Positions 27,305 to 30,300 of a stretch of 64,000 nt of DNA are shown here, piece after piece; position 1 is the first letter of the stretch, and every line of letters begins with the position of its first letter. Made by a program: the position numbers. The stretch is from Escherichia coli. GTDB lineage: Bacteria; Pseudomonadota; Gammaproteobacteria; Enterobacterales; Enterobacteriaceae. The stretch lies in the NCBI RefSeq assembly GCF_003790525.1, contig NZ_CP033635.1. The stretch is one strand, 5' to 3'.

Positions 27305-30300
27305 CTATTTTTGTGCCATAAGGATGTTGCTGGTTGGTTGCTGATATGTGAAATAGTTAATTTCTACCAGCTGAGACGTTTTTTCGATAACAAGGGGAAG
27401 GTGATGGAACTACGGCATTTACGCTATTTCGTCGCAGTGGCGCAGGCACTGAACTTTACCCGTGCGGCGGAAAAACTGCATACCTCACAGCCTTCGTTAA
27501 GCAGCCAGATCCGCGATCTTGAAAACTGTGTCGGTGTTCCGTTACTGGTGAGGGATAAGCGCAAAGTCGCGTTGACGGCGGCGGGAGAATGTTTTCTCCA
27601 GGACGCGCTGGCAATCCTCGAACAAGCGGAAAATGCCAAATTACGGGCGCGGAAAATTGTTCAGGAAGACAGACAATTAACCATTGGCTTTGTGCCATCG
27701 GCGGAAGTGAATTTACTGCCAAAAGTATTACCGATGTTTCGTCTCAGACAGCCAGACACCTTAATTGAGCTGGTGAGTTTAATCACCACGGAACAGGAAG
27801 AAAAAATTCGCCGTGGTGAACTCGACGTCGGCTTAATGCGCCATCCCGTTTATAGCCCGGAGATTGATTATCTGGAGCTTTTTGACGAACCATTAGTGGT
27901 GGTGTTACCGGTTGATCACCCTTTAGCACATGAAAAAGAGATCACTGCCGCGCAACTGGATGGCGTGAATTTCGTCAGTACTGATCCAGCGTATTCCGGT
28001 TCGCTTGCGCCGATCGTTAAAGCGTGGTTTGCGCAAGAAAACAGCCAGCCAAATATCGTCCAGGTGGCAACGAATATTCTGGTGACCATGAATCTGGTGG
28101 GGATGGGGCTGGGCGTCACTTTGATACCCGGTTATATGAATAATTTTAATACCGGCCAGGTGGTATTTCGACCCATTGCCGGAAATGTGCCTGCCATTGC
28201 TTTACTGATGGCGTGGAAGAAAGGGGAGATGAAGCCGGCATTACGCGATTTCATCGCCATTGTGCAGGAACGTTTGGCAAGCGTAACGGCATAATTACGC
28301 ATTATTTTTGCAACATGCGTCGCGGATCGCAGTTTTTTAGTGCTTGTGAACTGGTGTTACAGACATCGGGAAGCAGGCTCGAATATTCTTATTTTTCAAC
28401 TTGCACCAACATTCGATTAACCCCAGACTAACGCCTCCTGACGGGAGGGACTCATGGTTTTGCAATCCACGCGCTGGTTGGCGCTCGGCTATTTCACATA
28501 CTTTTTTAGTTACGGCATTTTTCTACCTTTCTGGAGCGTCTGGCTTAAAGGTATTGGTTTAACGCCAGAAACCATCGGCCTGTTATTGGGGGCGGGTCTG
28601 GTTGCCCGTTTCCTCGGGAGTTTGCTCATCGCGCCCCGCGTCAGCGATCCTTCCCGCCTGATTTCCGCCTTGCGCGTGCTGGCACTGCTGACACTTCTCT
28701 TTGCTGTCGCCTTCTGGGCGGGGGCGCACGTAGCGTGGCTGATGCTGGTGATGATTGGCTTTAACCTCTTTTTCTCACCGCTGGTACCGTTGACCGATGC
28801 ACTGGCGAATACGTGGCAAAAGCAGTTCCCGCTTGATTACGGCAAAGTGAGACTGTGGGGCTCGGTAGCGTTTGTCATTGGCTCGGCGCTGACGGGCAAA
28901 CTGGTCAGTATGTTTGATTATCGGGTGATCCTCGCGCTGTTGACGTTGGGCGTGGCATCCATGCTGCTCGGCTTTCTCATCCGTCCGACGATTCAGCCAC
29001 AAGGGGCAAGCCGCCAGCAGGAGAGCACCGGTTGGTCTGCGTGGTTGGCGTTGGTTCGCCAGAACTGGCGCTTTCTGGCCTGCGTTTGTTTATTGCAGGG
29101 GGCACATGCGGCCTATTACGGTTTTAGCGCCATTTACTGGCAGGCAGCTGGCTACTCGGCCTCGGCGGTGGGCTATTTGTGGTCGCTGGGCGTGGTGGCA
29201 GAAGTCATTATCTTTGCGCTGAGTAATAAGCTTTTCCGCCGTTGTAGCGCCCGTGATATGTTGCTGATCTCGGCAGTATGTGGGGTATTGCGTTGGGGAA
29301 TTATGGGGGCAACCACTGAGCTACTGTGGTTGATTATGGTGCAAATTTTGCATTGCGGCACCTTCACCGTGTGCCATCTGACCGCTATGCGCTACATTGC
29401 TGCTCGCCAGGGTAGCGAAGTCATCCGTTTACAGGCGGTTTACTCTGCCGTCGCGATGGGCGGCAGTATCGCCATCATGACCGTTTTCGCCGGTTTCCTG
29501 TATCAATATCTCGGCCACGGCGTGTTCTGGGTGATGGCGCTGGTGGCGCTTCCGGCAATGTTTTTGCGCCCGAAAGTTGTTCCCTCATGCTGATTCGAGC
29601 ATTTTGCGGATCTGCTCCTGTTGATGTGTTGTCAACGTCAGGTCCGTATAGATCAGCGGTGGTGAAAAGAGCGGTAACGGCATGGTATAAGGAGCAATAA
29701 TCAGTGCCGCGCCGCGCGGAGCGCCTGTCTGCAAAAATGCCTTTACCGACATATGTTTAATGTTGAGCGGCAGTAACGTTAGTTCGCGTAGCTGCTGCTC
29801 AATCTGCGCTTCTCGCTCGCTATCATTCCCGGTCAGTAGAATAATCTGTTTCTCATGCAGGTCGTTTTCCTGCATTAGCCAGGCACCGAAAATCACCGCG
29901 ACCAGACCGCTTTCCTCATCAGAAAGATGGACGCCGTATTCACTTTCAAATCCGGCCAGCGCCGCGCGGGTGGTGCGCACCAGGCGTGGATACAGGCGGG
30001 CGAACTCTTCCGGCAGGGTGTTATCAATACCGATGGCAAACAAACTGCGATTTAACGCCTGGGCGAGGTGGGTATAAAGCTGATCGCACAACCCCTGTTC
30101 ATCATAAAAACGAACATTTCCCAGCTCACGAAAATGGTTTACCAGACGTTTGATAGACTGACGCAGTTGTCTGTCCCGCTGATGCGCATCCCGCAGTGGA
30201 TCGGGAACCCGCAACATGGAAAAAAGTAATGCCATGAACAGTGGCTCATCAGGCGGTACAGGCTGGAGCGCCCGACGCTGCCAGTGGCGTCCAATTTCCT

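Follow-up and report, generated by a model that had tools for sequence, protein, structure and literature searches.

Genes that converge with no DNA between them raise the question of whether their shared 3′ ends serve regulation or are simply what genome compaction has left behind. We address this question for hcaT and csiE, two convergent genes whose stop codons overlap in a 64,000-nucleotide (nt) stretch of Escherichia coli DNA (assembly GCF_003790525.1, contig NZ_CP033635.1; hereafter the window, with positions counted from its first letter). An earlier note made from the sequence alone had pointed to the overlap and read from it transcriptional interference or antisense 3′ untranslated regions (UTRs) between a catabolic transporter and a stationary-phase gene. 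The evidence presented below indicates that hcaT/csiE is an ordinary, long-known tail-to-tail overlap, in all probability a product of neutral compaction of the genome and not an element dedicated to regulation.

hcaT and csiE share nine nucleotides

The hcaT coding sequence, for an MFS transporter of 379 aa, occupies 28454–29593 on the plus strand, and that of csiE, for a PRD-domain, stationary-phase-inducible protein of 426 aa, occupies 29585–30865 on the minus strand; both are found in the list of open reading frames (ORFs), in the RefSeq annotation of strain AR_0013 and through NCBIfam and Pfam matches. Direct reading of the sequence gives the segment common to the two genes as TCATGCTGA (9 nt, 29585–29593), which is the same in K-12. 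The TGA that ends hcaT lies at 29591–29593 on the plus strand, the TGA that ends csiE is the complement of the TCA at 29585–29587, and both ORFs are uninterrupted; the csiE start is annotated at 30865, and its longest ORF extends to 30886. The codons of the two frames are in register across the shared segment, with the plus strand reading TCA TGC TGA (S-C-stop, the end of HcaT) and the minus strand TCA GCA TGA (S-A-stop, the end of CsiE).

The annotations agree with this reading. An identical 9-nt overlap is annotated in AR_0013, to which the window is 99.9% identical over 29000–30200, and in K-12 MG1655 (csiE 2665435–2666715, hcaT 2666707–2667846), the comparison that the earlier note had proposed. 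CsiE covers positions 1–425 of the 426 in the NCBIfam equivalog NF008597 and contains two Pfam PRD stretches, and HcaT matches NF008346/TIGR00902 up to model position 381 of 383 as well as giving a full-length Pfam MFS_1_like match. As both proteins fit their equivalog models essentially end to end, to within 1–2 model positions, neither gene stops earlier, the circumstance that the note had named as speaking against the overlap. Thus hcaT and csiE are genuine full-length coding sequences that lie on opposite strands with facing 3′ ends and share nucleotides, i.e. a convergent overlapping gene pair, and the 9-nt overlap is genuine. It is a deterministic fact of the sequence, and chance is therefore not the relevant test. 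The geometry is also as first described, with zero intergenic DNA and no room for terminators between the stops.

The overlap in E. coli

A census of E. coli counts 663 overlapping pairs of adjacent genes, 75 of which are convergent (Huvet & Stumpf 2014, PMC4161906), and the hcaT/csiE overlap itself is already known, both from the K-12 reference annotation and from a published catalogue of excludons (PMC12288877). Within the window, hcaT/csiE is the sole overlapping pair among five convergent ones, the other four having gaps of 44 nt (glnB/hmpA), 62 nt (glyA/yphH), 47 nt (yphB/yphA) and 31 nt (sseB/timP). Of 5424 complete E. coli genomes, 5004 carry an identical 71-nt segment across the junction, and the others match it at 95–99%; the 9-nt overlap is still present in the one variant that we inspected.

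Two observations concern hcaT as a gene. In E. coli EC77 from bovine milk (NZ_CP196708.1; locus L041, 3661–4334), a deletion takes away hcaR entirely, together with the 5′ part of hcaE and two-thirds of hcaT from its 5′ side; two annotated pseudogene fragments are left, and the csiE/hcaT junction is intact. In the window, a 176-nt patch inside hcaT (29225–29400) is 82% identical to K-12 versus 94% to E. whittamii, the corresponding values for the remaining 5′ part of the gene being 98.7 and 89.8%. The patch looks like a short imported recombination tract; it carries six amino-acid changes in HcaT residues 275–310, and the allele is rare, with only 125 of the 5424 complete genomes reaching 99% identity or more over 29000–30200.

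A spacer-free junction in 13 genera

The history of the junction was followed by scanning for CsiE in one genome per species, which gave 36 loci in 13 genera: Escherichia, Citrobacter, Salmonella (arizonae and diarizonae), Pseudenterobacter, Intestinirhabdus, Kosakonia, Leclercia, Enterobacter, Pseudescherichia, Silvania, Cedecea, Dryocola and Buttiauxella. An HcaT homologue (74–97% identity) lies convergent and directly after csiE in 35 of the 36. With each ORF extended to its own stop, 31 of the 34 loci with an intact hcaT show an overlap of 0–14 nt, and the other three have gaps. The 9-nt overlap (TCAnnnTGA) is found in Escherichia, the C. amalonaticus/sedlakii group, Pseudenterobacter and Intestinirhabdus; a 6-nt overlap (TCATAG or TCATGA) in three Citrobacter sp. 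and in S. arizonae/diarizonae; a 4-nt overlap (CTAA, TTAG, TTAA or CTAG) in Kosakonia, Leclercia, Silvania, P. vulneris, Cedecea colo and others; and a 14-nt overlap (TTAttgagtgtTAA) in most Buttiauxella. The two stops abut (0 nt, TAATCA) in Enterobacter soli and in strain E69; a megablast search of 5426 complete E. coli genomes with the TAA-insertion variant of E69 found no match, weak evidence given a query of 71 nt.

The gaps measure 89 nt in Dryocola boscaweniae (L021:5237–5325), where a pair of inverted 27-nt arms has a REP-like (repetitive extragenic palindromic) appearance, 38 nt in Cedecea sulfonylureivorans (L023:5237–5274), REP-like by eye although the repeat search found no inverted repeat, and 186 nt in Buttiauxella sp. 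A111 (L031:4152–4337), which holds an ERIC-like (enterobacterial repetitive intergenic consensus) palindrome. Both labels are tentative and rest on likeness to the consensus sequences of these repeats. The sole locus without hcaT belongs to an uncultured Buttiauxella metagenome-assembled genome (L028:5236–6552), in which a convergent 399-aa ORF follows csiE after a 116-nt gap; by eye this ORF resembles a methylthioribose kinase (mtnK-like), with mtn-like ORFs beyond it. One Citrobacter assembly has both csiE and hcaT fragmented, probably through assembly errors.

This series of junctions points to an ancestral state without intergenic DNA in which the length of the overlap drifts. Spacer DNA would have been lacking between hcaT and csiE since before the enterobacterial genera diverged, and the stops would move within a few dispensable C-terminal codons to give overlaps of 0, 4, 6, 9 and 14 nt, E. 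coli having settled at nine. In agreement with such drift, the residues past the …IRxxLE motif of CsiE and the …LRPKV motif of HcaT vary freely across genera, and the terminal codons, 1–2 in CsiE and 4–8 in HcaT, are apparently dispensable. CsiE is also the fastest-evolving protein of the neighbourhood (60–73% identity between genera versus 74–88% for HcaT). The spacer-free state may persist neutrally, because a spacer once lost can be regained only if DNA is inserted, as three of the genomes show, or if one gene acquires a premature stop.

The same features are typical of convergent overlaps that arise in prokaryotes by stop-codon movement, in which short shared 3′ ends differ in length between related species; the 4-nt forms found here in several genera are the classic ones of such overlaps. 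Nothing essential sets hcaT/csiE apart from them, and what is mildly unusual is the long persistence without a spacer and the appearance of gaps only through repeat insertions.

We also looked for constraint on the junction beyond that of protein coding. Codon-wise synonymous diversity over 35 species averages 0.50 for hcaT as a whole and is 0.51–0.54 in its last 20–25 codons. An RNAalifold prediction on 25 species leaves the sequence past the csiE stop unpaired and gives 8 trivial pairs (−3.8 kcal/mol) past the hcaT stop, with conserved structure on neither side. Taken together, the motif, RNAalifold and synonymous tests found no nucleotide-level constraint beyond protein coding at the junction.

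Transcript ends at the junction

The 3′ end of csiE can be placed from published Term-seq data (Adams et al. 2021, PMC7815308, Supplementary file 1), which list an end at MG1655 2666762 (+) as ‘primary’ for csiE and ‘antisense’ for hcaT. The end was transferred to the window by sequence match, with one mismatch in 61 nt; the printed sequence comprises 50 nt upstream, the 3′ end and 10 nt downstream, a register that was checked on the neighbouring entry for yphH, where a hairpin and UUUCU precede the end. On this basis the csiE mRNA ends at position 29538, 47 nt beyond its own stop and wholly within the last ∼19 codons of hcaT, giving a 47-nt 3′ UTR at 29538–29584 on the minus strand. As the mapped end falls inside hcaT, the antisense 3′ UTR proposed in the earlier note is real; the transcriptional interference proposed alongside it does not follow from the overlap. 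Judging from its position in the file and the number of 3′ ends per condition (1175, 882 and 1053), the entry most likely derives from the sheet for LB at an optical density (OD600) of 2.0, an origin that fits the control of csiE by sigma-S and CRP. The SMRT-Cappable-seq supplements contain no entries for csiE or hcaT.

No canonical intrinsic terminator lies 3′ of either stop according to a pattern scan of 28000–31200, in which the 8 terminator-like matches are not clearly above the 4.1 ± 1.9 of shuffled sequence; the nearest match on the plus strand (29539–29556) sits within hcaT, upstream of its stop. Folding of 200 nt per strand at the junction is no better than shuffled (z-scores −0.30 and −0.84), inverted repeats of at least 8 nt are lacking at 29480–29700, and Rfam and tRNA scans of the window give nothing at or near the junction. 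Bidirectional intrinsic terminators occur in the same setting of convergent units; unlike these, hcaT/csiE has no intergenic DNA and hence no GC-rich hairpin flanked by A- and U-tracts between the stops. With neither spacer nor intrinsic terminator, each transcript would have to run into the neighbouring gene before it ends, as the csiE mRNA does.

The untranslated RNA past each stop would be open to Rho, and Rho-dependent termination, followed by 3′-exonuclease trimming back to weak stem-loops, is the likely route by which the two transcripts end. We infer the involvement of Rho from the missing intrinsic terminators, from stretches richer in C than in G downstream of the stops and from the pattern described by Dar & Sorek 2018 (PMC6061677), in which Rho-dependent transcripts end just after stem-loops without U-tracts through trimming by exonucleases. 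The csiE end is likewise discrete, lacks a U-tract, comes after small, weak stem-loops (the last 30 nt fold at −3.3 kcal/mol, all 50 nt at −11.1 kcal/mol) and is followed by sequence with C in excess of G. The C/G ratio was profiled in 78-nt segments against the distribution over the whole window (99th percentile 2.07). On the csiE-sense strand it is 1.1–1.3 over the first 130 nt past the stop and peaks at +235 to +312, with values (3.1 in this strain, 2.1 in K-12) above the 99th percentile; a C-rich, G-poor candidate Rho-loading stretch for csiE read-through is thereby predicted at 29221–29350 (−). On the hcaT-sense strand the first ∼140 nt past the stop are G-rich (C/G 0.4–0.6), and ratios of 1.4–1.9 are reached only at about +250 to +380, so that the corresponding candidate for hcaT read-through lies inside csiE, at 29841–29970 (+), with ratios of 1.4–1.8.

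A sense–antisense overlap of at least 56 nt (29538–29593) would thus be present whenever both genes are transcribed. Interference would require appreciable transcription of both genes within one cell, and any interference between csiE and hcaT is probably small, because both are weakly expressed and the level of hcaT is notably stable. The csiE start site, published as K-12 2,665,401 together with its promoter hexamers (PMC10301672), falls at 30899 (−) in the window once colinearity with K-12 is checked, 34 nt upstream of the ATG and after a weak −10 element (AACTTT); the promoter depends on sigma-S and cyclic AMP (cAMP)-CRP (PMC10301672, PMC4447067), and an E-sigmaS ChIP-seq peak has been reported (PMC4447067). 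hcaT has its own promoter, and its role as a transporter is only partly backed by experiment (PMC10249474). A terminator-like hairpin and T-run at 28281–28300 spans the stop of the preceding gene, hcaR, which fits hcaT being a separate transcription unit. At the 3′ end of hcaR (28229–28294, plus strand), K-12 lists the 21-codon iroK (b4706), nested in frame and with the same stop; the AR_0013 annotation is without it.

The pair is older than the hca cluster

The earlier note had taken hcaT for a catabolic transporter, a description that proves overstated, as the pairing with csiE is older than the hca catabolic cluster and independent of it. A comparison with the flanks of loci L003–L038 reveals that hcaR and hcaEFCBD adjoin hcaT only in E. 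coli proper (L001, L002 and L006); in the window, hcaD to hcaR span 23051–28294. Directly after hcaT come yphA-yphB-yphC in E. albertii, E. whittamii and strain E69 and yph-like genes or glyA-hmpA in the other genera, and yfhR is confined to Escherichia among the loci compared. From these flanks we infer the ancestral order iscR-trmJ-suhB-(X)-csiE> <hcaT-(yphA)-glyA-hmpA. As the hca genes adjoin hcaT only in E. coli proper, the csiE–hcaT pair predates the link of hcaT with 3-phenylpropionate catabolism, and the name ‘3-phenylpropionate transporter’ therefore rests on an adjacency that arose late. In E. coli SCPM-O-B-8794 (L006, 2852–8127), identities to the window are uneven, at 85% for CsiE, 97% for HcaT, 94% for HcaR, 99.8–100% for HcaE and 98% for HcaF, which suggests that the hca cluster has been exchanged horizontally between Escherichia lineages.

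Weighing the explanations

Several observations weigh against an account by neutral compaction and Rho. The junction has stayed spacer-free in 13 genera while both flanks were reshuffled, and ExcludonFinder reports higher synteny for its excludon pairs, taken together, than for controls (PMC12288877), which fits selection for the arrangement. Synonymous diversity drops mildly in the last 25 codons of csiE (0.40 versus 0.50); at its 5′ end each of the two genes dips further, to 0.27–0.34. As regards termination, the hairpins ahead of the csiE 3′ end, at −3 to −11 kcal/mol, fall short of the ‘energetically stable’ structures described for Rho-dependent ends, the curated Term-seq list of Adams et al. 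(PMC7815308) gives no 3′ end for hcaT, and their Rho-region table has no entry in MG1655 2666500–2667099, although the latter may only reflect low expression, csiE being probably not expressed in the condition behind that table.

The conserved tight junction and the synteny of excludon pairs favour an alternative in which the spacer-free arrangement is selected as a functional excludon. Colliding RNA polymerases, cleavage of the duplexed 3′ ends by RNase III, or both, would then lead to mutually exclusive expression, such that induction of csiE by sigma-S and CRP lowers hcaT, or the reverse. ExcludonFinder places csiE-hcaT among 165 convergent ‘excludons’ of MG1655, the transcripts overlapping in half or more of 58 RNA-seq samples, and together with the Term-seq end this establishes the in vivo transcript overlap that excludons share, including the csiE 3′ UTR antisense to hcaT; excludon pairs as a class also show less single-cell co-expression. 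However, given that the coding sequences overlap, a transcript overlap is close to automatic, and the catalogue listing is silent on regulation. Classic excludons have long antisense UTRs that run over much or all of the neighbour, and reciprocal expression has been demonstrated for them, whereas the mapped overlap here is only ∼56 nt and hcaT is constant: its mRNA was chosen as one of three quantitative PCR (qPCR) references that vary least with strain, temperature and growth stage (PMC3110127), which is hard to reconcile with strong repression by csiE induction. Neither the length (0–14 nt) nor the sequence of the overlap is conserved, three lineages tolerate REP- or ERIC-like insertions between the genes and one locus has another gene in place of hcaT, the hcaT 3′ end shows neither added synonymous constraint nor conserved RNA structure, and our literature search found no experiment on csiE-hcaT or its reciprocal expression. 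On balance we consider a functional excludon unlikely.

A bolder form of this proposal would make csiE and hcaT an ancient module of a PRD-domain protein and an MFS transporter, kept as convergent neighbours without a spacer throughout Enterobacteriaceae whatever genes flank them, in which the absence of a spacer was selected for mutually exclusive, growth-phase-dependent expression; the label of HcaT as a 3-phenylpropionate transporter would then reflect a late, E. coli-specific insertion of the hca genes and not the ancestral role. We regard this, too, as a doubtful proposition.

Very little probability attaches to the idea that the weak hairpins form a degenerate bidirectional terminator, acting upon collision or by non-canonical intrinsic termination. 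Its candidates are the plus-strand hairpin at 29539–29556 followed by AATGTTTTTG, the complement of this hairpin ahead of the csiE 3′ end, and a hairpin at 29605–29648. The scan does score the first as a hairpin with a T-run, the csiE end at 29538 is 1 nt past its complement, and head-on collisions are reported to boost termination at bidirectional terminators (bioRxiv 10.1101/2022.10.23.513370). Nevertheless, the hairpin precedes the hcaT stop, and termination there would truncate hcaT; it has only 5 pairs and an 8-nt loop, its complement contains a C-A mismatch, the csiE-sense strand is without a U-tract, terminator-like matches are not clearly more frequent than in shuffled sequence, and the structures are not conserved between genera. 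Finally, an artefact of annotation or sequencing, in which one gene ends earlier or is not real, is rejected as extremely improbable: nothing was found in its support, and intact ORFs, equivalog matches to within 1–2 residues of the model ends, orthologues in 13 genera whose C-termini fall at nearly the same residues and the near-uniform junction of complete E. coli genomes all stand against it.

Other features of the window

Rfam matches above the gathering score elsewhere in the window are the GlmY small RNA (5094–5241, plus strand), the iscRS stability element (34477–34586, plus strand), ryfA (41842–42146, minus strand), where the small-toxin gene timP is annotated at ∼41853–41978, and sroE (54987–55078, plus strand); no tRNA genes were found in the 64 kb. 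Downstream of der, at ∼60255–64000, the AR_0013 annotation gives a SinH intimin-like inverse autotransporter, a protein of the SinI family and the first part of a very large protein with adhesion domains.

Implications

In practice, deleting or tagging the 3′ end of either gene alters the other, and phenotypes of csiE and hcaT mutants need to be read with care. A curation of the Keio collection (PMC9431181) found the original primer for deleting csiE to be placed downstream of the intended target, such that the csiE mutant loses the last transmembrane helix of HcaT; correct and incorrect csiE mutants are both present in the library. Because hcaT is widely used as a qPCR reference, its last ∼56 nt, which are covered by antisense csiE RNA, are best kept out of amplicons.

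As for the biology, the overlap itself is of little consequence, being annotated in the reference genome, catalogued, and one of ∼75 such pairs in E. coli. The modest addition made here is that the junction is spacer-free in 13 genera and that the pairing is older than the hca cluster. Overlaps of 0, 4, 6, 9 and 14 nt, together with the REP- and ERIC-like insertions, make the csiE/hcaT junction a natural series for testing the regulatory value of convergent overlaps.

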